Of a stretch of 64,000 bases of DNA, positions 12,134 to 23,234 are shown piece after piece. This DNA comes from Rubripirellula sp. (GTDB taxonomy: Bacteria > Planctomycetota > Planctomycetia > Pirellulales > Pirellulaceae). The position numbers were made by a program, and so were the translations under genes. The stretch is taken from positions 224,001 to 288,000 of the forward strand of contig OZ244207.1 of assembly GCA_965216875.1 (NCBI GenBank), read 5' to 3'. How positions within the stretch are numbered: the stretch's first letter is position 1; each line of letters begins with the position of its first letter. The notes beneath the pieces are model-generated. The model had not been told where the DNA came from, did not search any database, and was given only the letters and a program-made list of their open reading frames with translations.

Positions 12134-12982
12134 GTAGGCCGGATCAAGGAGCGACAGCGACACAGATCCGGCACGCTGAGCAGACGGCGCTAGCCGAGGG
12201 CCCAACGCTCAATCTTCCGCAATCGTTGTAGGCCGGATCAAGGAGCGACAGCGACACAGATCCGGCACGCTCCACCGAAGACTAAGCCAGAAGGTGGACG
12301 AGTGCCAATGAGCCGCGACCGCGTAAGCGGCCGGGCCCTGTCCACTCTTTCGTGGCCAATCTCTTTTCCCAACGTTCGCCACACTCCTGAGCCGACGGCG
12401 CTAGCCGCGGGCCCTACGCTCAATCTTCCGCAATCGTTGTAGGCCGGATCAAGGAGCGACAGCGACACAGATCCGGCACGCTCCACCGAAGACTAAACCA
12501 GAAGGTGGACGAGTGCCAATGAGCCGCGAACGCGTAAGCGGCCAGGCCCTGTCCACTCTTTCGTGGCCAATCTCTTTTCCTAACGTTCGCCACACTCCTG
12601 AGCCGACGGCGCTAGCCGCGGGCCCTGCCCTCAATCTTCCGCAATCGTTGTAGGCCGGATCAAGGAGCGACAGCGACACAGATCCGGCACGCTCCACCGA
12701 AGACTAAACCAGAAGGTGGACGAGTGCCAATGAGCCGCGACCGCGTAAGCGGCCGGGCCCTGTCCACTCTTTCGTGGCCAATCTCTTTTCCTAACGTTCG
12801 CCACACTCCTGAGCCGACGGCGCTAGCCGCGGGCCCTACGCTCAATCTTCCGCAATCGTTGTAGGCCGGATTAAGGAGCGACAGCGACACAGATCCGGCA
12901 CGCTCCACCGAAGACTAAACCAGAAGTTGGACGAGTGCCAATGAGCCGCGAATGCGTAAGCGGCCGGGCCCCATCCACTCTT
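12134..12982 (+). repeat. Tandem array of a 211-bp composite REP unit (three full units, a 94-bp internally deleted first unit, a partial last unit)
   Basis: GTAGGCCGGAT(C/T)AAGGAGCGACAGCGACACAGATCCGGCAC starts at 12134, 12228, 12439, 12650 and 12861 (211-bp period from 12228). Each full unit also carries two TGAGCCG...GGGCCC-like hairpins. Confidence 0.95.
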
Positions 12983-13094
12983 TGTGTCTTCTCGTGTTTT
13001 TCGTGGCCCATCTTCCCACAAGAACCTCAGCACCATTCGTCCAATTCGATCGATTCGTGGTTCGTCATTGTCAAAAAGCACAACAAGTTCAGCG
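12958..13094 (+). repeat. Dispersed repeat, copy 1 (AAGCGGCCGGGCCC...CACAACAAGTTCAGCG), related to 19250-19437
   Basis: Aligns by eye to 19250-19437; this copy has two internal deletions. Confidence 0.85.
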
Positions 13095-13175
13095 CGAAAA
13101 TCCTTAAACATTTCTTGTTGTGTTGTTCGTGCCCAATCATTCAACAAGAAGAGTGATCCCTGCGCGATCCAAAAT

Positions 13176-13204
13176 TTGACAACCCAAATGTCAACGGCGA
13201 GAAT
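13176..13204 (+). promoter_or_regulatory. Putative Pc-like sigma70 promoter for the cassette array
   Basis: TTGACA (13176-13181), 17 nt, GAGAAT (13199-13204). The -35 box is part of the palindrome TTGACA-N7-TGTCAA. Confidence 0.55.
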
Positions 13205-13231
13205 GCCCCCGAAGTGGTTGCCACCTAACCG

Positions 13232-13365
13232 GTGAGAATGCTGGGGCGACCAGTGAGAATACGAGGATCAACGCGCGCGTCACCAACCGTACCGAAGGTC
13301 CACTCAGTGAGAATAACCAGCACGACGTATTCTCACCTGTCCAACAGCTGATAAATAAGTTATTT
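13232..13365 (+). other. attI-like site, crossover G/TT at 13359
   Basis: GTTATTTGGA at 13359 is the reverse complement of TCCAAATAAC in the first attC. No attC hairpin lies upstream of it; instead there is an AT-rich GCTGATAAATAAGTT core and repeated GTGAGAAT boxes. Confidence 0.7.
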
Positions 13366-13377
13366 GGACTAACCTCC

Positions 13378-13990
13378 TTGCGAGTGCGCTTCTCAATCAC
13401 TGCTTTGCTCGTGTTGCCTATCGCGGCAGCATTCACGTACGCGTTGTGGTTACGCCTTGCTAATTGGGGACCGCCTGAGAGGAAGACATGCATTGCACAC
13501 GAACACTCCGTCGGACTGGTGCGGGGTTTTGATACTCAAGATTGGGGCCACCACGACGTTGAGCCGGGACAGGGCACTTATCTCACAGGGCACTTATCTC
13601 TATGTTCGAATCTACGGATTGCTGAGCACGACAACGGACAGCACTTCCTATTTGGATTTGGGACTCCAACTTCCCGCGAACGTTGAAGCCGGACAAACGT
13701 TTACCTGTACGCCAGCTAAACGCGCACGCGCAGTATCCGAAGTCGATGTTAACGGCGACTCACTATCGAAACTCACGGAAGGGGAATTCGCTATATTCGG
13801 GTATGCGTACCCGCGTACCGGTTGGTTAGTTTCAGGTTCGAAGGTGACGGCCAGAGTCGCGATCGAACGCATTTCGCGAAAACGGATGTATGCCCAAATC
13901 CAACTTGCTGGTCAATTTGCCCCCGATCTCGGTCCACTTAATATTGATCGGACATTGGTTTTTGATCGCGACCTGGCGAATTCCAAATAA
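13378..13990 (+). pseudogene. Cassette 1: membrane-anchored/secreted hypothetical protein frameshifted by a 16-bp tandem duplication
   Basis: ACAGGGCACTTATCTC is duplicated at 13569-13584 and 13585-13600. Removing one copy joins ORFs 13378..13686 and 13457..13990 into one frame. Confidence 0.85.
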
Positions 13991-14073
13991 CCAAGCCATG
14001 AACCGGAGATCGCCATAGCGCGATTGCTGATGGCAACCACATTGGGCGATCCCGGTTATGGCCAACGTTCGCC
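13985..14073 (+). repeat. attC-like site 1
   Basis: AAATAAC...CATGAACCGGAGATCGCC / GGCGATCCCGGTTATGG...GTTCGCC. Confidence 0.85.
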
Positions 14074-14098
14074 AACACAAAGCCTCAAACTGCGATTG

Positions 14099-14548
14099 AT
14101 GACCGAACATCGATTGTCGACACAAGATGTGCTCGATTTCTTCCGCGAGTTGCCTCAACACCGTGGTTGTTCGGTAGACGAACTTGACGCCGTTGAGAAT
14201 CAGCTAGCGGTATCACTACCGCAGTTATATCGCGACATGATGCTGCTTGACGCATATCGCCTCTACAACACTGAAATCTTCGTCCCTGTTTCCGAATTGC
14301 ACGAGTGGACACGGACTGCACCCGACGACTTCCATCGCGGTACGATCTGGACACTCTCTCCGAGTGACGTGATCTTTGCGGTTGCCCCCGGTGCAGAGGA
14401 CAACTACTACTTTTCCGCAGACGGGACTGACGACCCGCCGGTGTACGGCTTGTCCCTGAATACAAGCAATCCTTCGACGCCGAATGTTGTCGCTGATACA
14501 CTATCCTTCTTCACTGCTGAGATTCTCAGGTCGTCCCTGAGACTCTAG
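14099..14548 (+). CDS. Cassette 2: SMI1/KNR4 (SUKH) family immunity-type protein
   Basis: GCSVDELDAVENQLAVSLPQLYRDMM...YYF...DDPPVY. Confidence 0.8.
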   Translation: MTEHRLSTQDVLDFFRELPQHRGCSVDELDAVENQLAVSLPQLYRDMMLLDAYRLYNTEIFVPVSELHEWTRTAPDDFHRGTIWTLSPSDVIFAVAPGAEDNYYFSADGTDDPPVYGLSLNTSNPSTPNVVADTLSFFTAEILRSSLRL

Positions 14549-14560
14549 CGTTACTGAACT

Positions 14561-14653
14561 GGCGAACCATGAAATGCACGGGAGGACGGGAGTCGCGTTT
14601 TTTAGTCTGCTTGCAAGCCTTTCGCCCGTCCCCCGTGATTTCTTTCGTTCGCC
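14561..14653 (+). repeat. attC-like site 2
   Basis: GGCGAAC...ATGCACGGGAGGACGGG / CCCGTCCCCCGTGAT...GTTCGCC. Confidence 0.85.
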
Positions 14654-14659
14654 GATGCA

Positions 14660-15196
14660 ATGAACAACTCCTTTTCATTTGTCGTCGTGTTCGGATTACT
14701 CGCATTTGTGTCCGGCTGCAGCGACGCGTCGAGAACCGACGAGCAATACCTTGCTGACTGGCGGAACGCCGAATCTAAAAGCAACGTTTTGCATGAGGGT
14801 GGCACCTGGCATTTCGAATTTGTGTCTGTTCGCCTGTACCGCCACAACTGGGATAACCAATATATCGAATTTCCAATCCTATCGGCGGGGAAGCTAAGTG
14901 AAACCCGTGAACCGAAGGAAGGGATCTTGCTGAGTCCTAGTCAGGTCGACCGCCTAGAAGCAGCAGTAACCGGATCCCACGCAGACACTGGAATCGCATT
15001 GTGCCATTTTCCACATCACGGATTTGTCTTTTTCGACGCTGATGGCGTTCCTGTCGGTAGCGTGGATGTCTGTTTTCTTTGCGGAAACGTTAGGACCATG
15101 CCCGAAGGGTATGCAGAGAGTTGTGATCTGCTCTCTCTTGCTGAGTTGATACATGAAGCCGGTGTTCCACTTCGCAACCCAGAGTGGAAGCACTAG
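14660..15196 (+). CDS. Cassette 3: hypothetical lipoprotein with CxxPHH...CFxC motif
   Basis: Hydrophobic signal ending VSGC; ALCHFPHHGFVFFD...VDVCFLCGN. The ORF fills the cassette. Confidence 0.8.
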   Translation: MNNSFSFVVVFGLLAFVSGCSDASRTDEQYLADWRNAESKSNVLHEGGTWHFEFVSVRLYRHNWDNQYIEFPILSAGKLSETREPKEGILLSPSQVDRLEAAVTGSHADTGIALCHFPHHGFVFFDADGVPVGSVDVCFLCGNVRTMPEGYAESCDLLSLAELIHEAGVPLRNPEWKH

Positions 15197-15197
15197 C

Positions 15198-15287
15198 GGC
15201 GAACCATGGCGTGCACACGAAGCACGGCATAAGATGTTTACAAATGGAAACCGCATGGGCCGTCCCCGGTGACGGCTAACGTTCTGC
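15198..15287 (+). repeat. attC-like site 3
   Basis: GGCGAAC...CGTGCACACGAAGCACGGC / GCCGTCCCCGGTGACG...GTTCTGC. Confidence 0.8.
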
Positions 15288-15297
15288 CAATGGAGAT

Positions 15298-15744
15298 TTG
15301 CGTTTGACGCTGAGCCCTGAATCGAAGCGCGACCTTGCAATTGCCGCTGGGGGGATCCTCGCAACGACTTTCTTCGTTTCGTCAAACGGTAACGGACAGA
15401 ATCCGTTCACGGTTCTCCTTGGGATGCTGATTGTCTCCGCGATCGTCTCTGCCATATCTATTCTGCTGTCAAGGCTCGTGCCCACATTAACATTGGCTAT
15501 CGTTGCGAGTATTGTCATTTCGGAACTGGTTTTCCTGCTCTATTTCATGTACAGCGTAGCATCGCGTGGGCATTCAGACCCTCATCTGGCAGAAGCGTTT
15601 TTGCTCCTTCCGATCGTTTTTGCGATCGTGACTTCACCGCTCATCGCGTTGACCGCGTATGGTATAGGACGGATCGCCAATCGCTACTTTTATTCGCATG
15701 ACACAACTTCTGATCTTTCCGATCAGAAAACACCGGCGATGTGA
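15298..15744 (+). CDS. Cassette 4: small integral membrane protein (~4 TM)
   Basis: TTG start after GGAG; four hydrophobic segments; stop codon 2 nt before attC4. Confidence 0.8.
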   Translation: MRLTLSPESKRDLAIAAGGILATTFFVSSNGNGQNPFTVLLGMLIVSAIVSAISILLSRLVPTLTLAIVASIVISELVFLLYFMYSVASRGHSDPHLAEAFLLLPIVFAIVTSPLIALTAYGIGRIANRYFYSHDTTSDLSDQKTPAM

Positions 15745-15746
15745 AG

Positions 15747-15837
15747 GCAGAACAATGACATGCCCCGAAGGACGCGAGCCAAGCGGTTTGGCAATGGTGA
15801 ATCTTTCTCGCGTCCTCGGTGATGTCCGCCGTTCTGC
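15747..15837 (+). repeat. attC-like site 4
   Basis: GCAGAAC...CCGAAGGACGCGAG / CTCGCGTCCTCGG...GTTCTGC. Confidence 0.85.
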
Positions 15838-15844
15838 GACAAGA

Positions 15845-16330
15845 ATGAATCTCACTGTTGCTGCCTTCTTCCTTGCTGCAGTTGGATGCAGCAATCGTAC
15901 AACAACGACGCCCCAAGAGAACGCCTTTGATCCGGCTGCCTATAGACCCGAGATTAGACCGTTTCTACTCCAACTCGACTCATTGGTCGGAAAGTACAAC
16001 TCAGAGGCGCGCGGAATCGAACTCAGTGAGCACGGAGTCGATGGACACCTGAATGATGCTGAAGCCCGTAGATTAGCCGATTTCGCAAATGCGATTATCG
16101 ACGACTTGAACAACCGTTTTGATAGGCCTGTCGCCCGCACGATCGGTGATACTTGGTATCAAGTTCCTTCGCGATTCAACATCACGGAAGCCGAACCACA
16201 TGACGGCATTTCAAGAACGTTCACTGTTTCTCACCTCAATTGCGGCCTTCATGAGTACGATTTCGTCGTTGACGAGGGCCTGGGCATCGTTGTTGCAGAT
16301 CGCTACGACAGCCTGGGCATCAACTGGTAA
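15845..16330 (+). CDS. Cassette 5: hypothetical lipoprotein
   Basis: MNLTVAAFFLAAVGC lipobox; the ORF fills the cassette. Confidence 0.8.
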   Translation: MNLTVAAFFLAAVGCSNRTTTTPQENAFDPAAYRPEIRPFLLQLDSLVGKYNSEARGIELSEHGVDGHLNDAEARRLADFANAIIDDLNNRFDRPVARTIGDTWYQVPSRFNITEAEPHDGISRTFTVSHLNCGLHEYDFVVDEGLGIVVADRYDSLGINW

Positions 16331-16335
16331 GGTGC

Positions 16336-16426
16336 GCAGAACGATGCGAAAATACGGAGCGGCGGTGGAGCGATTGTTTCCAATGGTTGGTCAACTCCCG
16401 CCGACCGCACATCGCTACCGTTATGC
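16336..16426 (+). repeat. attC-like site 5
   Basis: GCAGAAC...CGGAGCGGCGG / CCGCCGACCG...GTTATGC. Confidence 0.8.
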
Positions 16427-16435
16427 ATCAAGACA

Positions 16436-16934
16436 ATGGAACTTCGTCCCCAACTTGAGCCTCCGAAGATCGACGAGCAGCTTGCTGCCCGACTCGCAGA
16501 GCTTGCTGCGGACATTGACGGTGCGCGACCCGGCGAATGGGACGAATGGCTGGCTGAATTCAATCAGCTCGCGAATACTTCGATTCCGTTTGAGCACTTC
16601 CAAGGAATCTACGGTGGCGAAGAACATATCGAATGGGTGCGCCGAATATTGCACGATCAACACTCAAAACCTGTTGATGACGTCACGCGTGACGAACTAA
16701 TCGAAATTGTCCGACGTGCCATGCCTCAGAACGGATATTTGGAAGCCGAGGCATACATGGCGGTACTCGACAAAAAATGTCCCGCGATCTGGGGCGTCAA
16801 ACTTGATCTTTTATCCGCCTGACTACGACGACGCCACGAACACTTGGGACGGTGGCCGCATGATGGGTGAATACGATCCCACACCAGAGCAAATCGTGGA
16901 TTGGGCGTTGCAAACTGATTCAAATGATGCATAA
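16436..16934 (+). pseudogene. Cassette 6: colicin/pyocin-immunity-like protein, frameshifted at an A6 run
   Basis: Removing one A at 16772-16777 joins 16436..16822 to 16707..16934, giving ...TRDELIEIVRRAM...LDKNVPRSGASNLIFYPPDY...DPTPEQIVDWAL, which resembles nuclease-colicin immunity proteins. Confidence 0.75.
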
Positions 16935-17019
16935 CAAAAAAATGCACCCGAGTCGCGAAGTCGGGCGTATTGACAATTGAGAATCTCTCGTCGCGACCGG
17001 GTGATCTTAGACGTTCTGT
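16929..17019 (+). repeat. attC-like site 6
   Basis: GCATAAC...ATGCACCCGAGTCGCGA / TCGCGACCGGGTGAT...GTTCTGT. Confidence 0.85.
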
Positions 17020-17022
17020 GAA

Positions 17023-17652
17023 ATGGAGTCTTCGCCCAACGTGACTGCAGGCAAAATCACAATCGCCGTTGTCGTGCTCGGCTTCGCAGTGCTTTATTGC
17101 GAATGGCTAGCGACGATTGTTCCTCCCGAGCATTGGGCATACGGCTTCTGCGTCAATTTTGTATTCCTGGCAGCGTTCACGGCCGTACTCACAACGCTTG
17201 AACTTCCAATCCTCCCAAGCTCGTACTTCACACCTAAATCATTTGAGCGCGAGGGCCGGATCTATCGCTGGACGGGCATCCAGCCATTTCTAGCTTTCTT
17301 GCGGCTTATCGGTTGGGAGCGATTTTGGCGAAAAGCAATTCCGGTCAGGACTGACGTTGCCTCGCTTCGCAAGTACTCTCAATCTACGCGCGGCTCCGAA
17401 GCAGTGCACCTGGTCGCTGCGATCTTTACAGCATTGTTTACGATGACGGTCGCAGTTCGACACTCGTTCGTAGGTACAGGATGGCTGTGGGGATTCAACG
17501 TTCTGGCGAACGCCTACCCAGTGATGCTTCAACGCTATAATCGTCCGCGGGTTGATCGACTACTTCGCCGCCTCGAACGAAAATGCGGTCAGGACAGCAC
17601 AGAACAAAGCGATCGACACGGAGCCGCCGACGGCGCTTTTACAAAAGGATGA
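17023..17652 (+). CDS. Cassette 7: membrane protein, CrtO-like (glycosyl-4,4'-diaponeurosporenoate acyltransferase family)
   Basis: IYRWTGI..F...TRGSEAVH...[14 protein letters not shown] motif. The stop codon lies inside attC7. Confidence 0.65.
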
Positions 17653-17688
17653 TCGATTGCGGCGGCCCGGTCATCGCAAGCGTTCTGT
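17599..17688 (+). repeat. attC-like site 7
   Basis: ACAGAAC...GATCGACACGGAGCCGCCG / CGGCGGCCCGGTCATC...GTTCTGT. Confidence 0.85.
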
Positions 17689-17701
17689 GGCTAAGACGAA
17701 C

Positions 17702-18298
17702 ATGCCGAAACAACTCCCGTCTTGGGTCATCGAACAATCTCTCAACTGGCAGCTCTTCGAATGTTGCGGTGACCAAGACCTGTTTCCGTTTCGCTGTCAC
17801 CAATGCCAACACATTTACGTGCTCTGCTACGAGTGCGACACCCTATACACCGATTTGACGGATCTCTCGCAGCGCCACGCTCCTTTGTGGGACAACTATT
17901 CCTGCACAAATTGCCCCGCCAACTTCGACGACGACTTCATGCGTTCGCCACGGCATCGCATTCCATACACCGACTGGAACAACGCAAACCTGCATCAATT
18001 GCTGGTGGATTGCCCGTTTGAAGACTTGATGCGAATGCTCACAACCTTGAGCGACCAGATTGCGGATCACCTGCGCCGCGGCATGCGCAGCACGGCTGGA
18101 CGTGCGATGACCGAATACCGAAATTTGGCCGAATCAATTATGGTTCACGTGGCGGACGCGGACGATGCCCGTGCAGATGGTTACGATTTGACGGATCCCA
18201 AGGCACTTGCAAACGCGATGGCCTGGCACGACGAACTCCCCAACAAACCAAGCCGCAACTACGCGTTGCTGGGAATCACTGACAGGCTCTTCGCGTAA
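17702..18298 (+). CDS. Cassette 8: Cys-rich putative zinc-binding protein
   Basis: ECC...CHQC...CYEC...CTNC in the N-terminal half; helical C-terminal half. Confidence 0.75.
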   Translation: MPKQLPSWVIEQSLNWQLFECCGDQDLFPFRCHQCQHIYVLCYECDTLYTDLTDLSQRHAPLWDNYSCTNCPANFDDDFMRSPRHRIPYTDWNNANLHQLLVDCPFEDLMRMLTTLSDQIADHLRRGMRSTAGRAMTEYRNLAESIMVHVADADDARADGYDLTDPKALANAMAWHDELPNKPSRNYALLGITDRLFA

Positions 18299-18308
18299 AA
18301 AAGACGCC

Positions 18309-18399
18309 ACAGAACCATGCGATGAACGGAAGTCGCGGAGTCGTCGTTTTTGACCAATGAAAATCGATCGCCGCGACTCGGTTCTCGCGTCCGTTCCGC
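18309..18399 (+). repeat. attC-like site 8
   Basis: ACAGAAC...GCGATGAACGGAAGTCGCGG / CCGCGACTCGGTTCTCGC...GTTCCGC. Confidence 0.85.
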
Positions 18400-18426
18400 T
18401 TGTTATTAGACGATCCAACTCTGCCA

Positions 18427-18711
18427 ATGTCGATGAAAGCAGCATCCACACATCTGACCGCTGGAGTTTTTCTGACTCTGCTGACGGGTTGCGCGTTGTT
18501 CAGCGAACCTAAAATGGAATTCCCGCGTGGAAGCCCCATTTCGCACGATCAGATCCCTGAGGCGTTACGACTGAAGCTTGACCTTCCACTTAATGCATCG
18601 GTGGAACGATTCGGCGATGACCCGGATACGGCGTCGTATAGGATTGAGCAGCCTAATGGCAGTGTCCGATACATCGGATCAAATGGAGAGCCTCAAGGCG
18701 GTATCATGTAG
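18427..18711 (+). CDS. Cassette 9: small lipoprotein
   Basis: MSMKAASTHLTAGVFLTLLTGC lipobox; the start could be 18433. Confidence 0.75.
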   Translation: MSMKAASTHLTAGVFLTLLTGCALFSEPKMEFPRGSPISHDQIPEALRLKLDLPLNASVERFGDDPDTASYRIEQPNGSVRYIGSNGEPQGGIM

Positions 18712-18718
18712 AGGGAAG

Positions 18719-18809
18719 GCGGAACCATGCGATGAACCGAAGTCGCGGGGTCACCGTTTTGGACAATGGAAAATCAATCGCCGCGACTCGGTTATCGCGA
18801 CCGTTCTGT
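18719..18809 (+). repeat. attC-like site 9
   Basis: GCGGAAC...GCGATGAACCGAAGTCGCGG / CCGCGACTCGGTTATCGC...GTTCTGT. Confidence 0.9.
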
Positions 18810-18836
18810 TGCAAGAGCTAATGAAACCAAACTGAC

Positions 18837-19187
18837 ATGATTCGACCCGATGACTTTGAGATTGAAATTGGCCACAACGATCGAGGCACATTCGTTCGCG
18901 TAAAACACAAGCCAACCAACAACGAACGTCTTCAGGAATCTGTACCGGAAAATGAGATTGGGCGTCGTCGCGAATCAATGATCACCGAACTCCGCGGGCT
19001 ATTGTTCGGACCCAAGGATGTCGTTTTCGACACGGGAAGATCTGTAGGCGGTGACTTCATTCGTGTTCGCCACTTGCCGACGGGAATGGAGCGTTCCGCT
19101 ATGCGTCGCGAAAGCACGCACGAAAATCTGCTGGATGCTGTGCTCGAGGACGTGTATTCGGATAGGCTCCGAGAGGATGCAACCTAA
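18837..19187 (+). CDS. Cassette 10: protein with two tandem release-factor domain-3-like repeats lacking GGQ
   Basis: Repeats IRPDDFEIEIG...FVRVKHKPT and FGPKDVVFDTGRS...FIRVRHLPTG. Confidence 0.75.
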   Translation: MIRPDDFEIEIGHNDRGTFVRVKHKPTNNERLQESVPENEIGRRRESMITELRGLLFGPKDVVFDTGRSVGGDFIRVRHLPTGMERSAMRRESTHENLLDAVLEDVYSDRLREDAT

Positions 19188-19228
19188 CTGGCGTTGCCCT
19201 TTAGCCGGCCACCGCCAACGAAGAAGCA

Positions 19229-19256
19229 ACAGAATCATGACATGAACCGAAGCGGC
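19229..19256 (+). repeat. attC-like site 10, left half only (disrupted)
   Basis: ACAGAAT-CATGA-CATGAACCGAAGCGGC, then an abrupt switch into the dispersed repeat. GCAACAGAAT pairs 9/10 with the cassette start GTTCTGTTGC. Confidence 0.7.
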
Positions 19257-19437
19257 CGGGCCCTATCCACTTTTTGTGTCTTCTTGCGTTTTTCGTGGCT
19301 CATCATCCCAAAAGAATCTCAGCACGAGTGCTCGCGCAACAGTTCGCCATTTGTCCAATTCGATCGATTCGTGGTTCGTCTTTGTCGCCTGGATGAGGCA
19401 GCCACAAGAAACACGAAAAGGCACAACAAGTTCAGCG
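19250..19437 (+). repeat. Dispersed repeat, copy 2, containing an inverted pair (TTGTGTCTTCTTGCGTTTTTCGTGGC / GCCACAAGAAACACGAAAAGGCACAA)
   Basis: Direct-repeat homology to 12958-13094. Confidence 0.85.
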
Positions 19438-19469
19438 ATTGCCGATTGCTGCCCAAGGGAGTTCCCCCG

Positions 19470-19560
19470 CGACAACCATGTGATGTTGACGGAGCGGCGG
19501 TGGTCGCCGCTCACAAATGGAAAACAAATCACCGCCGCACGCACATCGCTACCGTTCGCC
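19470..19560 (+). repeat. attC-like site 11 (its own cassette gene is missing)
   Basis: CGACAAC...GCGGCGGTG / CACCGCCGC...GTTCGCC; similar to attC5. Confidence 0.8.
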
Positions 19561-19578
19561 GAAGATGCAAATAGCACT

Positions 19579-20028
19579 ATGACGGATCACGAAATCGATA
19601 AACTTATCACTGAATTTCAGACGAAGCATCCCTCGATCATGGATGGGGCTCACGTCCGACGAGATCCCGTACATACCATTGAGCGTCTTGCCGAAATCGA
19701 GCGGGAGCACGGGGTCGTACTTCCAGCGCAATACAAACGCCATCTGTGCAAGCACGGCGCCGGAGATTTCGGGCACACGTGGATCTACGCTCCCGAAGGC
19801 AAAGAGGGGGCGGGGTTGTGGGAGGATTACTACTACATGCCTCAGCACAAGGGACGCTTCCTACCAATTTCCGATAACGGCTGCGGCGATCACTACGGAT
19901 TTCGCATTGTCGATAATGTCTGCGCGGACTTCATCTGCTTTGCCGACCACGAACAGGATTACGAGTTGTCCGATGCTGTCTATCCAGACTTCAATACGTT
20001 TATCGCAGAGGTTGGGCTATCCAGCTGA
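19579..20028 (+). CDS. Cassette: SMI1/KNR4 (SUKH) family immunity-type protein
   Basis: LAEIEREHGVVLPAQYKRHL...FLPISDNGCGDHYGF...DHE...YPDFNTFI. Confidence 0.88.
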   Translation: MTDHEIDKLITEFQTKHPSIMDGAHVRRDPVHTIERLAEIEREHGVVLPAQYKRHLCKHGAGDFGHTWIYAPEGKEGAGLWEDYYYMPQHKGRFLPISDNGCGDHYGFRIVDNVCADFICFADHEQDYELSDAVYPDFNTFIAEVGLSS

Positions 20029-20045
20029 TTTGCGATTCACACAAC

Positions 20046-20140
20046 GGACAACAACGCGTTGCACCAGAGTAAGGGCGTCTGACATAATCGAGATTCCGGT
20101 CGCAATGAACTCCCTTGCCCGGTGAACGCCATCGTTATCC
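20046..20140 (+). repeat. attC-like site 12 (divergent loop)
   Basis: GGACAAC...GCGTTGCACCAGAGTAAGGG / CCCTTGCCCGGTGAACGC...GTTATCC. Confidence 0.75.
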
Positions 20141-20170
20141 GAACTCGCAACCAGGCCGACTGATCCGTAC

Positions 20171-20584
20171 ATGTTTGAATTTCACGGCTGGGCGTCAATT
20201 CACTATCACGTCTACGAGATTGATGAGCGGAAGCAGGATTCGCTTTGGCGTGATTTGACCGACTACGTCGCTTCAAACTGCTCACGTTTCGCGACACTCA
20301 CGCGCTACAACGGATGCGATTCGTGTCACACCGCTGGTCAGCGCAACCATCGCACCTCCCACCCCTTTGAGCTGTTTGAGTGGATTGCACTTCACGCACC
20401 CGGTTCATACGGACTGCTCTATGTTCGCGACGATGAGGATGACATGCGTGGCTCGGACTTCACCAATTGCTTTCGGGCGTGGCGACTCTGCAGAGGGATA
20501 TTTGCTGAACTCGACGATCCCTTTCTCTCACCTGCGATACCCGTCGTGGAAGACCCCACCGATCTCGATCGTGACGATTTTTGA
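20171..20584 (+). CDS. Cassette: Imm7 family immunity protein
   Basis: MFEFHGW...NHR...APGSYGLLYVRDDED...LCRG...DPFLSPAIPVVED, which matches my recollection of the Imm7 consensus. Confidence 0.8.
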   Translation: MFEFHGWASIHYHVYEIDERKQDSLWRDLTDYVASNCSRFATLTRYNGCDSCHTAGQRNHRTSHPFELFEWIALHAPGSYGLLYVRDDEDDMRGSDFTNCFRAWRLCRGIFAELDDPFLSPAIPVVEDPTDLDRDDF

Positions 20585-20587
20585 TTC

Positions 20588-20678
20588 GGATCACCATCCA
20601 ATGCACCCGAGCGGCGAAGTCGGGCATTTTGACAATGGACATTGACTCGTCGCCGCCGGGTGATTGTTGCCGTTCGCC
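20588..20678 (+). repeat. attC-like site 13 (R'' mutated to CAC)
   Basis: GGATCAC...AATGCACCCGAGCGGCGA / TCGCCGCCGGGTGATT...GTTCGCC. Confidence 0.85.
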
Positions 20679-20731
20679 GACTTACCGAGTGATGGCAACC
20701 TCTCGATTCAACTGCAACTCCTTCTGAACCA

Positions 20732-21094
20732 ATGCCGGACGATGTGATTGCGACCATCAAGCGTTTCATCACTGACTACCGCCGCGGTAGCCATACGAGC
20801 TTGGAACTTGTTGATGTCACCTTCCAAACGCTCGTCGACAACGATGCATCCGACGAGCTCGTCAATGAGGTTCTGTTTCTGATGCCTGATAGCGTGATTT
20901 CCGCGTTCGAACAACGGATGGGCGAGATGGTGGAAACTGCGTTCTTTATTCCAAACAAACGCCTCGGTGACCACCGATCGGACGACGAAGTCCGTCGTGA
21001 TGCTTTCGCGCGTCAACCGATACTCCGGCGAATTCATCACGCATTCTTACGTCCGTTACTGCTACGTCGTTATCGTCTCGAACATGGATGGTGA
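20732..21094 (+). CDS. Cassette: hypothetical helical protein
   Basis: 120-aa ORF in cassette orientation; no recognisable family. Confidence 0.6.
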   Translation: MPDDVIATIKRFITDYRRGSHTSLELVDVTFQTLVDNDASDELVNEVLFLMPDSVISAFEQRMGEMVETAFFIPNKRLGDHRSDDEVRRDAFARQPILRRIHHAFLRPLLLRRYRLEHGW

Positions 21095-21174
21095 CCTGGC
21101 AACATTTGCCGTGGCTGTGGCACACCGATACGATGGAAAGTGTTGAGCAATGGAAGACCAACCCCGCTGCAGGC

Positions 21175-21263
21175 GGCGAATCATCGCGTGCACACGAAGG
21201 CCTGTTGGTTCGTTTGCTCAAATGGAAAGTCAACTCACGAGCCTCGGTGACGGGGCGTTCATC
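21175..21263 (+). repeat. attC-like site 14 (degenerate)
   Basis: GGCGAAT...CGTGCACACGAAGGC / GCCTCGGTGACG...GTTCATC; L'-R' spacer 2 nt short. Confidence 0.75.
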
Positions 21264-21278
21264 GAATGAGAACAGGCC

Positions 21279-21857
21279 TTGGCAGATGCAATAGAAAATC
21301 GATTCAGGCCGCGTTACAGCTTGCTTCTGTTTTGCCTTGTCTGTTTACTGATCTCAATGCTTGTCGCCTACACTGGAGTCTTGAGGCAGATCACTCCTCC
21401 GGCACATGAATTTGTTGGCTTTCCAGCCGATGCGCCACGCCAAGACGGTTTCATCGCTCCGGGACAGCTAACGCATGTTGTCAAGCAAGATGTTTTCGCT
21501 CCAAATGGATTTGATGTGCGTCTGACAGTTCGCATTCAGCTGAACCATGATCGCGTTTTTTCACATTCCATCGACGGATGCCTAATGGAAATCGAGCATG
21601 TCAGCTATAGCCTTTACGACAGCCTGTCGGTCGGTGATCCGACGTTCGTGGAGGAGTTTGTCGCGGGTGAGCTCACGCGATTCAATGGCACGTCGGCTGT
21701 CCGATCCGTTGAGCTGTTAGACTTTAAGACACTTCCAGCACCGGGAACGAACTCCGGTGGCTCGGCAAACTCCATGGTCATCGATGAACCATCCGATGCA
21801 CCGAAGGACCGAACGTCGCGTTCTGAAGATGGAAAATCAATCGCCGGTCCTCGGTGA
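21279..21857 (+). CDS. Cassette: membrane-anchored hypothetical protein reading through its attC
   Basis: RFRPRYSLLLFCLVCLLISMLVAY N-terminal anchor; stop codon in the L' box of attC15. Confidence 0.7.
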   Translation: MADAIENRFRPRYSLLLFCLVCLLISMLVAYTGVLRQITPPAHEFVGFPADAPRQDGFIAPGQLTHVVKQDVFAPNGFDVRLTVRIQLNHDRVFSHSIDGCLMEIEHVSYSLYDSLSVGDPTFVEEFVAGELTRFNGTSAVRSVELLDFKTLPAPGTNSGGSANSMVIDEPSDAPKDRTSRSEDGKSIAGPR

Positions 21858-21872
21858 TCGCGTGCGTTACCC
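21783..21872 (+). repeat. attC-like site 15
   Basis: GATGAAC...CGATGCACCGAAGGACCG / CGGTCCTCGGTGATCG...GTTACCC. Confidence 0.85.
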
Positions 21873-21883
21873 ATGGTGAGATT

Positions 21884-22207
21884 TTGTTGAGACTCTTGAT
21901 TCTTCTTGCAGTTCCGCTTTGTGTGTTGGGGTGTACGACGGTCAGATCCCCCAAATTCAAGGTTGATACTCGCGACGAGATGCATCATGCAATCGTTGAT
22001 GCGATACCTACGGGGACCTCAGTCAAGCATGCGACGGAAATCATGGAATCCGCTGGTTTTGACTGCGTTTTCATCGAGTCAGGAAGTTTTTCTGAGGACG
22101 CAGGGATCATTGGCGATGAACGCGACTACCCATTCGTAAAAGACGCACGATTTCTTAAGTGCACGCGCATAGACAGCACAGGAATGTTGACGTCAAATAG
22201 TTGGTGA
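21884..22207 (+). CDS. Last cassette: lipoprotein, possibly 3'-truncated, no following attC
   Basis: TTG start, LRLLILLAVPLCVLGC lipobox; IPTGTSVKHATEIMESAGFDC. Confidence 0.65.
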   Translation: MLRLLILLAVPLCVLGCTTVRSPKFKVDTRDEMHHAIVDAIPTGTSVKHATEIMESAGFDCVFIESGSFSEDAGIIGDERDYPFVKDARFLKCTRIDSTGMLTSNSW

Positions 22208-22253
22208 GCGTAGCTGGCTACGGGAGGAGGTTTGGTGCGTGCAAGCACACACC

Positions 22254-23234
22254 CTACTTTCTGATGACGGGGGCCAGGTAGATATCTCGGTACTTCACGT
22301 TCGTGTGATCACCTTGCAGATGAATGGGCCCTGGTTGGGTTGGGTCGGTGAAGACGGCACCACCGGTTGGCCCAGGAACCGGTTGATTGTCGATCACTTT
22401 TTCGCCGTTTAAGACAACGGTGACGTGGCGATCAACCAGCGTCAAATCGTAGGTCTGCCACTGCCCGCCTGCGCGGCCTGCATTTTTCGACGGTGGGATG
22501 CTGCCGAAAATCGCGCCGACCCCTTGGATGCCCTGCATCCGACTGTCGCGATCAACCACTTGCGCTTCATACATGCCGCGTAGGTAGACGCCACTGTTGC
22601 GATCTTTTTCGACCAGGAATTCGATGTGCAACCAGAAGTCTTCAAAGACCGCTTCGGTGCGAAGATTCGCGTACGCGCCGGTCGCGCTGAAGTCGGTCTT
22701 GGGTGTCGTGTTCACAAGCTGGCCGTCTTTCACGCTCCAGCCGTTGATCTTATCGGACTCGTGCGGCCGCCAGCCTGTCAGGTCTTTGCCGTTGAAAAGC
22801 GAAATGGGATGCCCGAACCGAACCTTCGATAGATCGGGAGGTGTTGACGGCATCGGTGGGATCTTTTTTCCCTTCAGCCGATCCCGTTTCACCGTTCCAT
22901 CTGGCGAAACCGCTTTGATTTCTCCGACGAGTGCTCCATCGACAAGCATCACTTGTACTGTTTTGGTGTCTTTCTGCTTTCGGTTTTGGCGAAGCGTGAA
23001 GGACAACTGTCCTTGCGAATGCTTGACGTCTTGATGAGGTCCGTCGGGCCCGACGTGCAATCGCATTTTGACAACCGGGGCGCCATCGGATTCCGTGATG
23101 CTTAACCATGCTGGCGTGCCCGATTCCAAAGTGATAGACCAATCGCCAATCAGGTCGTCTGCCGATGCGGACAGTCCGAACGAACAAGCAAGCAGGACGC
23201 AACCAAGGACGTTTCGAATGGGCAAGTGATTCAT
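22254..23234 (-). CDS. DUF1080 (3-keto-disaccharide hydrolase family) protein
   Basis: SLFNGKDLTGW, FEDFWLHIEF, NSGVYLRGMYEAQV, GPIHLQGDH; start set at MNHLP. Confidence 0.9.
   Translation of the reverse strand: MNHLPIRNVLGCVLLACSFGLSASADDLIGDWSITLESGTPAWLSITESDGAPVVKMRLHVGPDGPHQDVKHSQGQLSFTLRQNRKQKDTKTVQVMLVDGALVGEIKAVSPDGTVKRDRLKGKKIPPMPSTPPDLSKVRFGHPISLFNGKDLTGWRPHESDKINGWSVKDGQLVNTTPKTDFSATGAYANLRTEAVFEDFWLHIEFLVEKDRNSGVYLRGMYEAQVVDRDSRMQGIQGVGAIFGSIPPSKNAGRAGGQWQTYDLTLVDRHVTVVLNGEKVIDNQPVPGPTGGAVFTDPTQPGPIHLQGDHTNVKYRDIYLAPVIRK

Follow-up and report, generated by a model that had tools for sequence, protein, structure and literature searches.

Introduction

Cassette arrays that lie apart from any integrase gene have been defined as CALINs, attC clusters without an accompanying integron-integrase, by Cury et al. 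(2016, PMC4889954), who also reported integrons in Planctomycetes and counted loss of the integrase gene, intI, among the possible origins of such clusters. By their account, about half of CALINs lie in replicons encoding the integrase IntI, and of 279 CALINs only 15 have a recognizable intI pseudogene nearby. How CALINs originate is treated as unsettled by Loot et al. (bioRxiv 10.1101/2022.09.11.507474); together with their continued activity, it is an open question in integron biology. Here we analyze a stretch of 64,000 nucleotides from Rubripirellula sp. (GenBank assembly GCA_965216875.1, contig OZ244207.1, positions 224,001 to 288,000; hereafter the window, to which coordinates refer unless given as genome positions), in which an array of short gene cassettes bounded by attC sites occupies 13165-22207. 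This region is very probably an integron platform that lacks an integrase gene, composed of an attachment site (attI) with a promoter-like element, 15 attC-bounded cassettes and a terminal open reading frame (ORF), and served in trans by an IntI encoded at 1.815 Mb of the genome.

The element is of an already known kind, a CALIN, and CALINs, planctomycete integrons and a planctomycete attC model have all been published. An integron integrase of Rhodopirellula baltica was listed by Cambray et al. (2011, PMC3108266), and a Planctomycetes attC covariance model (188 sites, 71.8% sensitivity, 99.3% specificity) was reported by Ghaly et al. (2021, PMC8352920). Given that model and the planctomycete integrons of Cury et al. 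(2016, PMC4889954), the proposal made in a first-pass annotation of the window, that the array represents a planctomycete-specific integron family, was overstated as a novelty.

Results

One intact integrase gene, four arrays and four attI-like heads

No match to the integron-integrase model TIGR02249 lies within the 64-kb window, as the first-pass annotation had stated in other terms; the tyrosine recombinase with the IntI-specific insertion for which it suggested searching the genome is present as an intact IntI. A single genome match exceeds the TIGR02249 cut-off (1815402-1816352, 412.6-414 bits vs 265), 1.59 Mb from the window array. The protein matches VchIntIA (PDB 2A3V) with an E-value of 1.1e-66, in an alignment that takes in both the IntI-specific insertion and the RHR-Y motifs. 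Its gene is divergent from an adjoining array of 36 attC sites that belong to the attC family of the window (1793755-1814307), and two further arrays in the genome lack intI, one with 24 attC sites (3525136-3541688) and one with eight (1143161-1147077). A complete integron, with intI beside attI and the array, is found only at the 1.815-Mb locus; the window array, with no intI nearby, corresponds to the definition of a CALIN (at least two clustered attC sites). Sedentary chromosomal integrons are recognized by more than 19 attC sites or by presence in all genomes of a species (Cury et al., 2016); the intI-linked and 3.54-Mb arrays exceed this number with their 36 and 24 sites, and the window array, with 14, falls below it.

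The first-pass annotation had overlooked that the window array has an attI-like head of its own. This ~200-bp sequence (13165-13361) is present in four genome copies, one per array, with 88-92% identity, and in a four-way alignment the homology breaks off precisely at G/TT, each copy then giving way to a different cassette. The complete integron has its copy (genome 1814723-1814919) between intI (start ~1815044) and its leading cassette, and the window head is 88% identical to this copy. All four heads keep the sequence TTGACA-17-GAGAAT, which agrees with the consensus at 10 of 12 positions; 12900-13500 contains no other such site. On this comparison each of the four arrays appears to have its own attI-like copy with a promoter-like site, the latter being a candidate promoter into the cassettes by its match to a consensus, in a group whose promoters are poorly defined. 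The head also holds a cluster of GYGAGAAT motifs, with five of the window's 13 matches falling within 140 bp. When sought in 25 relatives the head was found in none, a result that carries no information on its age, since attI is expected to be specific to its own integrase. The features at the head of the array are as follows.

12958-13164, + strand: ~200-bp repeat element (12958-13072), then junction sequence upstream of attI, by alignment
13165-13361, + strand: attI-like platform head with crossover G/TT at 13359-13361, in four genome copies
13176-13204, + strand: promoter-like TTGACA-17-GAGAAT, candidate Pc reading into the cassettes, by consensus match
13197-13336, no strand assigned: five GYGAGAAT motifs (four direct, one inverted), candidate protein-binding repeats

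The sister heads also bear on how intI was lost. At the 3.54-Mb locus the head runs on through 47 codons from the start of intI (72% amino acid identity) and then jumps to the repeats that follow intI, which indicates that the gene was deleted there. The junction upstream of the window attI is common only to the 1.148-Mb array (86.9% identity between window 13073-13361 and genome 1148126-1147837), and since these two heads share a junction different from that at 3.54 Mb, another deletion, common to both, is indicated.

The IntI frame carries an N-terminal extension of ~120 amino acids before the canonical core (genome ~1815044-1815400). It is kept in seven of eight aligned Pirellulaceae/planctomycete IntI loci and gives a weak, sub-threshold match to a SAM-like domain (PF02899, E 0.0046). 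The extension may be a second DNA-binding domain, and if the four arrays form one distributed integron (see Discussion), it and the clustered GYGAGAAT repeats might make up an arm-type recognition system.

Probable recent cassette exchange at the G/TT crossover

Cassette 2 of the window array (14066-14654) shows no difference from genome 1814225-1813628, a cassette of the intI-linked array. The identity starts at the C-G/TT of the preceding attC site, and both that site and the neighboring cassettes on either side are unrelated. Beyond the heads, cassette 2 and one intra-array duplicate, the four arrays share nothing of at least 150 bp. Within the intI-linked array, one cassette is duplicated (genome 1813182-1813665 vs 1801429-1801912, 99.4% identical over 484 bp).

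The first-pass annotation had suggested a comparison of cassette order between close strains, and such a strain is represented in run X6, public contigs labelled algae metagenome, where the bins over cassettes 5, 8 and 9 are without cover and no bridging contig exists. The strain is ~98% identical to the window in the flanks of the array (74 differences in 3257 bases on the left, 48 in 2970 on the right). A 477-bp X6 contig joins attI (13255-13358, three differences) directly to cassette 4 (15281-15653, five differences), and GTT fits both sides of this joint; cassettes 1-3 have accordingly been either acquired by the window array or lost from that of the X6 strain, through recombination at this attI. 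Other X6 contigs place cassettes 7, 12, 14 and 15 beside sequence that is absent from the window. The identity of cassette 2 and the X6 joint point to recent action of IntI in trans on the window array, and the cassette-precise identity together with the strain difference at G/TT lends indirect support to the view that the window attC sites have been recombined by an integron integrase. Of the two fates that the first-pass annotation had offered for the array, served in trans or orphaned, the former fits, with an intact distant IntI and a shared identical cassette, and the latter does not.

Two joints in run X1 (13361-14066 and 15837-18310) were considered as evidence of excision and rejected, being flagged "between: not known" and having short sides of 27-30 letters; the former, in addition, contains no precise G/TT product and is explained by a contig of the intI-linked array with the identical cassette 2. 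Runs X5 and X7 contain low-depth pieces with no differences, which represent the same sequence and are uninformative on variation.

Organization of the cassette array

Between 13.2 and 22.2 kb of the window, 16 short ORFs alternate with imperfect palindromes of ~90 bp. All 16 lie on the + strand, as expected from the first-pass description of co-oriented short genes, and the 14 intact hairpins counted there, seven of them of 91 bp, were recovered when the sites were delimited from the sequence: 14 attC sites of 89-93 bp, of which seven measure exactly 91 bp. A 15th site, s10 (~19226-19262), has kept its left arm alone. The 14 sites are spaced 410-711 bp apart, and the G+C content of the array is 52-54%, vs 55-60% in the flanks. 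Four cassette products belong to a Pfam family, namely two SUKH/SMI1-KNR4 proteins, one Imm7 protein and one CrtO-like acyltransferase; the remaining ORFs have no family above cut-off. We built a covariance model from the 14 window sites, and the bit scores in the following list, in which all features are on the + strand, come from this model.

13457-13990, + strand: cassette 1 (13360-14067) ORF, 177 aa, without Pfam family; contains a perfect 16-nt tandem duplication (13569-13600)
13985-14073, + strand: attC s1, 69.7 bits
14024-14548, + strand: cassette 2 (14068-14647) ORF, SUKH/SMI1_KNR4 immunity-type (PF09346, E 3.3e-07); the true start is probably inside the cassette
14561-14653, + strand: attC s2, 81.4 bits
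14660-15196, + strand: cassette 3 (14648-15281) ORF, 178 aa, without Pfam family
15198-15287, + strand: attC s3, 67.1 bits; minimum free energy (MFE) z -0.6
15298-15744, + strand: cassette 4 (15282-15831) ORF, 148 aa, without Pfam family
15747-15837, + strand: attC s4, 84 bits; bottom-strand dG -26.1 kcal/mol
15698-16330, + strand: cassette 5 (15832-16420) ORF, without Pfam family; the listed start is upstream of the cassette and the real one probably inside it
16336-16426, + strand: attC s5, 71.8 bits
16436-16934, + strand: cassette 6 (16421-17013), two overlapping ORFs (16436-16822 and 16707-16934), without Pfam family
16929-17019, + strand: attC s6, 85.1 bits
17023-17652, + strand: cassette 7 (17014-17682) ORF, CrtO-like membrane acyltransferase (PF18927, E 6.1e-21)
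17599-17688, + strand: attC s7, 73.1 bits
17552-18298, + strand: cassette 8 (17683-18393) ORF, without Pfam family; probably with its real start inside the cassette
18309-18399, + strand: attC s8, 83.4 bits
18400-18711, + strand: cassette 9 (18394-18803) ORF, 103 aa, without Pfam family
18719-18809, + strand: attC s9, 95.2 bits, the highest in the window
18837-19187, + strand: cassette 10 ORF, 116 aa, without Pfam family
~19226-19262, + strand: truncated attC s10, R''/L'' left arm running into the repeat element; no covariance-model match
19240-19470, + strand: copy of the ~200-bp repeat element in place of the right half of s10, by BLAST and alignment
19470-19560, + strand: attC s11, 73 bits
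19580-20028, + strand: cassette 12 (19555-20134) ORF, SUKH immunity-type (PF14568, E 2.8e-12), listed within a longer frame (19276-20028)
20049-20140, + strand: attC s12, 59.7 bits; weak MFE fold, z -0.7
20171-20584, + strand: cassette 13 (20135-20672) ORF, Imm7 immunity protein (PF15585, E 9.1e-26)
20588-20678, + strand: attC s13, 83.8 bits
20732-21094, + strand: cassette 14 (20673-21257) ORF, 120 aa, sub-threshold Pfam match only
21175-21263, + strand: attC s14, 58.6 bits; weak MFE fold, z -1.0
21279-21857, + strand: cassette 15 (21258-21866) ORF, 192 aa, without Pfam family
21783-21872, + strand: attC s15, 80.8 bits, the final attC of the array
21854-22207, + strand: terminal ORF 3' of s15, without its own attC or Pfam family; no covariance-model match downstream

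The two ORFs of cassette 6 are in different frames near an A-run, and the cassette is possibly one frameshifted gene. The terminal ORF is either a 16th cassette that lost its attC or a chromosomal boundary gene.

Signature of circular cassettes

If the crossover is placed at G/TT on the top strand of each R', 13 of the 14 cassettes that have a defined left boundary open with bases complementary to the R'' that they carry themselves. Twelve of these score 8-11 of 12 positions, cassette 1, at the attI junction, reaching 11 of 12, and cassette 10, which was mis-registered in the script, is complementary at 9 of 10 positions by eye. Mean complementarity is 8.43/12 for own sites vs 5.72/12 for 196 non-own pairings, the mis-registered row of cassette 10 being included. 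Such complementarity between the 5' end and the own R'' is what circular cassettes inserted at G/TT produce. The four examples given in the first-pass annotation are all present in the sequence, and its view that the array was built by G/TT recombination of circular cassettes is supported; its statement that each cassette complements its own R'' holds for 13 of 14, the exception being cassette 12 (4/12).

Folding, geometry and base identities of the attC sites

RNAalifold placed the 14 bottom strands in one hairpin of 21 pairs, 16 of which show compensatory changes. The covariance model matched those 14 sites and nothing else in the window, and the genome scan suggested in the first-pass annotation gave 77 matches in 8.26 Mb, 76 of them in four clusters. 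In an alignment of the 82 sites of the four arrays, which was fitted to the model and hence leans towards the structure, 92% of cells are paired vs 65.6% in shuffles, and the covariation score is 0.591 vs 0.149 in shuffles, a value reached by none of 500 shuffles, with slid controls at or below 0.10. Folding energies of the bottom strands, computed with DNA parameters, range from -12.5 to -26.1 kcal/mol, and 11 of the 14 strands have z-scores of -2.4 or lower against mononucleotide shuffles. A scan of the window returned no Rfam families, and generic repeat finding on the window did not pick up the attC sites, since they are too divergent for exact seeds.

The AAC/GTT triplet is the sole stretch conserved in all attC sites according to Nivina et al. 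(2016, PMC5027507), who also describe an extrahelical base at position 16 (L'') that is usually G, a conserved T at the last extrahelical position (23/24) and a required 6-bp stem between the two. In the window, GTT of R' is invariant in all 14 sites and AAC of R'' is present in 12 (CAC in s13, AAT in s14). The three R-box pairs are 96.3% paired across the 82 sites. Both bulges (alignment columns 131 and 122) belong to the bottom strand's 3' arm and are separated by 3+3 pairs plus a middle base that is optional; counted by hand from the bottom-strand 3' end on the alignment columns, they correspond to positions 16 and 23/24. The distal base is T in 78 of 82 sites. The base nearest the R box departs from the usual G, being C in 72 and G in seven of the 82, and in 12 of the 14 window sites the first unpaired base is C on the bottom strand, hence G on the top strand.

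The R' cores of the window are GTTC in 11 sites and GTTA in three; in the 82 sites they are GTTC in 39 and GTTA in 31 (consensus GTT[C/A][T/G/C][G/C]C), with GTTCGCC, GTTCTGC and GTTATCC the most frequent, and GTTC accounts for 16 of the 36 cores in the intI-linked array. The cores do not follow the extended consensus GTTRRRY / RYYYAAC: GTTRRRY fits one of the 82 R' cores and none of those in the window. This mismatch is a departure from a consensus and not from a requirement, because only AAC/GTT is universally conserved. The first-pass annotation was right for the window array in its count of GTTC cores, and equally in naming a top-strand G as the first unpaired base of the well-paired sites. 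Its description of the sites as non-canonical was overstated: judged from the alignment, the architecture is canonical and only base identities differ (C16 and the GTT[C/A] cores). A co-variation between IntI and attC, involving a His aligned to W157 of VchIntIA, was considered and dropped; IntI1 has R168 there, yet it uses a G extrahelical base (PMC2095811).

Distribution in related genomes

The attC model matched 26 of 41 genomes, the window's own being counted in both numbers, and 18 of 24 same-family genomes when the window's genome is left aside. IntI was above cut-off in 12 of the 41. The closest named relatives of this IntI, with 68-75% identity, come from Roseiconus, Stieleria and Rubripirellula, which places the family in the Pirellulaceae. 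In a set of 80 IntI-bearing loci drawn from many phyla, the attC model matched seven planctomycete loci (L020, L023, L024, L026, L050, L060 and L090), directly upstream of intI, and only three loci from outside the planctomycetes; upstream flanks are short in many of the 80, so that these counts are not a measure of sensitivity. The objection anticipated in the first-pass annotation, that the repeats might never be linked to an intI gene, is answered by this linkage, seen in the present genome and in the seven planctomycete loci. In two congeners the flanks of the window array match at 66-73% identity in scattered places, which left no orthologous locus to compare.

Several relatives with attC arrays gave no IntI match at E <=1e-30; two of them, G012 (one contig, 99% complete, 38 matches at several loci) and G006 (19 matches), appear to be genomes with CALINs only. 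Open frames of 309-590 aa that match the IntI model in its N-terminal half alone (~3-180) recur in the relatives G001, G002, G009, G013 and G018, some of them inside attC arrays; these frames may represent truncated copies of intI, or else a distinct protein with the N-terminal domain in common.

Flanking genes and repeats

The array is flanked by genes for a HEAT-repeat protein, two 3-keto-disaccharide hydrolases, a nuclease and a sulfatase. A duplication of the flanks by way of the two hydrolase genes was ruled out, as their identity is only 24%. The left flank contains the following repeat.

12176-12983 (within 12134-12983), no strand assigned: 211-bp tandem repeat, 3.8 copies, 96% matches, left flank of the array

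Each 211-bp unit holds a palindromic element of ~44 nt, whose ~40-nt core gives ~340 BLAST rows genome-wide; it looks like a dispersed family of the repetitive extragenic palindromic (REP) type. At the distal end of the array (~22230-22257) there is a short high-copy sequence, with contig depth in run X1 at ~5x the single-copy level, and many joints connect this bin with the left-flank repeats. Dispersed repeats therefore bracket the array.

A second, non-coding repeat element of ~200 bp flanks all four heads, its position at the complete locus being past the 3' end of intI, and another copy stands in place of s10's right half. The 5' end of the element resembles an attC left arm. It could be a miniature inverted-repeat transposable element, an attC-targeting element or an old platform flank. 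Its copies are as follows.

Window 12958-13072 and 19240-19470; genome 1148112-1148303, 1816661-1816860, 3542600-3542786 and 3543042-3543224: ~200-bp repeat element

Discussion

We propose that the four platforms descend from duplication of one integron and that only the 1.815-Mb platform still encodes IntI. The distant integrase most likely acts in trans on the window array: it would fold the attC bottom strands and cut at AA/C (top-strand G/TT), and cassettes excised as circles would be inserted at the window array's own attI, where the conserved promoter-like site could express the first cassettes. A bolder extension, which we put forward tentatively and consider rather doubtful, is that the four arrays form one distributed integron, with a single IntI, four attI landing pads with promoter-like elements and four expressed first positions, in which duplication and intI loss were maintained and do not represent decay.

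Several observations weigh against an integrase-less platform served in trans. That IntI is expressed, that it binds the window attI and that the promoter works are all steps that we infer. Cassette 12 fails the complementarity comparison, and for s3, s12 and s14 the unconstrained MFE structure is not the attC fold (z -0.6 to -1.0). GYGAGAAT occurs at chance level across the window (13 found vs 13.9 expected), so that its clustering alone is notable. The X6 joint at attI comes from a single contig, and metagenome contigs can be chimeric; a second X6 joint, from 20160 to 20636, skips 20161-20635, most of cassette 13, and since it does not lie at a G/TT crossover it is not a product of IntI. The disruption of s10 by the repeat element and the last ORF without attC mean, further, that parts of the array are decaying.

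This decay could be taken further, the whole array being an inert relic, the fossil of a dead integron copy untouched by integrase since intI was lost. The truncated s10, the terminal ORF, the apparent frameshift in cassette 6, the lack of complementarity in cassette 12 and a tblastn search that detected no intI remnant beside the window head would all suit a relic. It does not account for a cassette that is 100% identical, with G/TT-precise ends, in the intI-linked array though the attI copies have diverged to 88%, nor for the GTT joint between attI and cassette 4 in a strain of ~98% identity, and the genome holds an intact IntI with the same attC family; we regard a relic as improbable. The same head that speaks for a platform bears on two other origins. 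Had a rearrangement, which Cury et al. (2016, PMC4889954) name as one origin of CALINs, cut the cassette block off a single integron, the array would be a donor with no insertion site of its own. Repeat elements do flank all platforms, but a plain split leaves attI only beside intI, and here a diverged attI head with a promoter-like site shows homology up to G/TT and its junction is matched by the R'' of cassette 1, which makes a split array highly improbable. Nor does the head fit a place that was never an integron platform, at which the distant IntI inserted cassettes serially into a secondary site (attG), as proposed for small CALINs and single cassettes by Loot et al. (bioRxiv 10.1101/2022.09.11.507474): its ~200 bp are homologous to the sequence that separates intI from its first cassette in the complete integron, the 3.54-Mb sister locus keeps the intI 5' end, and such a build-up is scarcely credible.

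The hairpins might also have nothing to do with integrons and be REP-like elements or terminators between short genes, in a genome where palindromic repeats abound (the flank unit gives 340 BLAST rows) and a window that gave no Rfam match. The AAC/GTT ends, the one-arm bulges at 16 and 23/24, the covariation, the complementarity to the own R'' and the linkage to intI here and in seven other planctomycete loci already refute this explanation, to which we give virtually no weight.

The genome is unusually readable with respect to how CALINs arise. It holds three CALINs with an attI copy, one of them with an intI stump, one exchanged cassette and, in a close strain, a difference of three cassettes at attI. 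The window array adds what seems to be a clear case in which CALINs have retained attI, originate from duplication of a platform with deletion of the integrase, and still exchange cassettes. These results support the view that intI-less arrays can arise by duplication of a platform and loss of its integrase, and can stay capture sites served in trans. Cassettes for immunity-type and unknown proteins, as found here, are what chromosomal integrons typically contain, and no new kind of system is involved. A literature search on the topic found no description of attI-bearing CALINs or of several attI sites served by one IntI, which is not proof of absence.

The integrons of Xanthomonas with a decayed intI reportedly represent the decay of a single locus. 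They resemble the present case in that cassette arrays outlast integrase inactivation (bioRxiv 10.1101/2025.06.18.660453), and differ from it in that here an intact IntI copy elsewhere in the genome can still serve the intI-less copies. Cassettes far from intI and an IntI acting in trans are also features of attG sites and of single attC sites lacking integron-integrases (SALINs) as described by Loot et al. (bioRxiv 10.1101/2022.09.11.507474), whereas the insertion point in the window is an attI homologue and not a secondary genomic site. With the Planctomycetes attC model of Ghaly et al. (2021, PMC8352920) the window family has in common a taxon-specific attC of planctomycete chromosomes, its identity with that family being suggested by taxonomy only. 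The superintegron of Vibrio cholerae (PMC5027507) shares with it long co-oriented promoterless arrays, homogeneous attC sites, bottom-strand recombination at AAC and strain-variable cassettes; unlike that system, four arrays per genome here share one IntI, and the attC sites are of ~91 bp with C16 and GTT[C/A] cores. Closest are the CALINs of Cury et al. (2016, PMC4889954), which likewise have at least two attC sites with no intI nearby, a complete integron on the same replicon and cassettes of unknown function that are not resistance genes; in contrast to CALINs as described there, the window array keeps an attI homologue with a promoter-like site, and its origin can be read from its sister loci.

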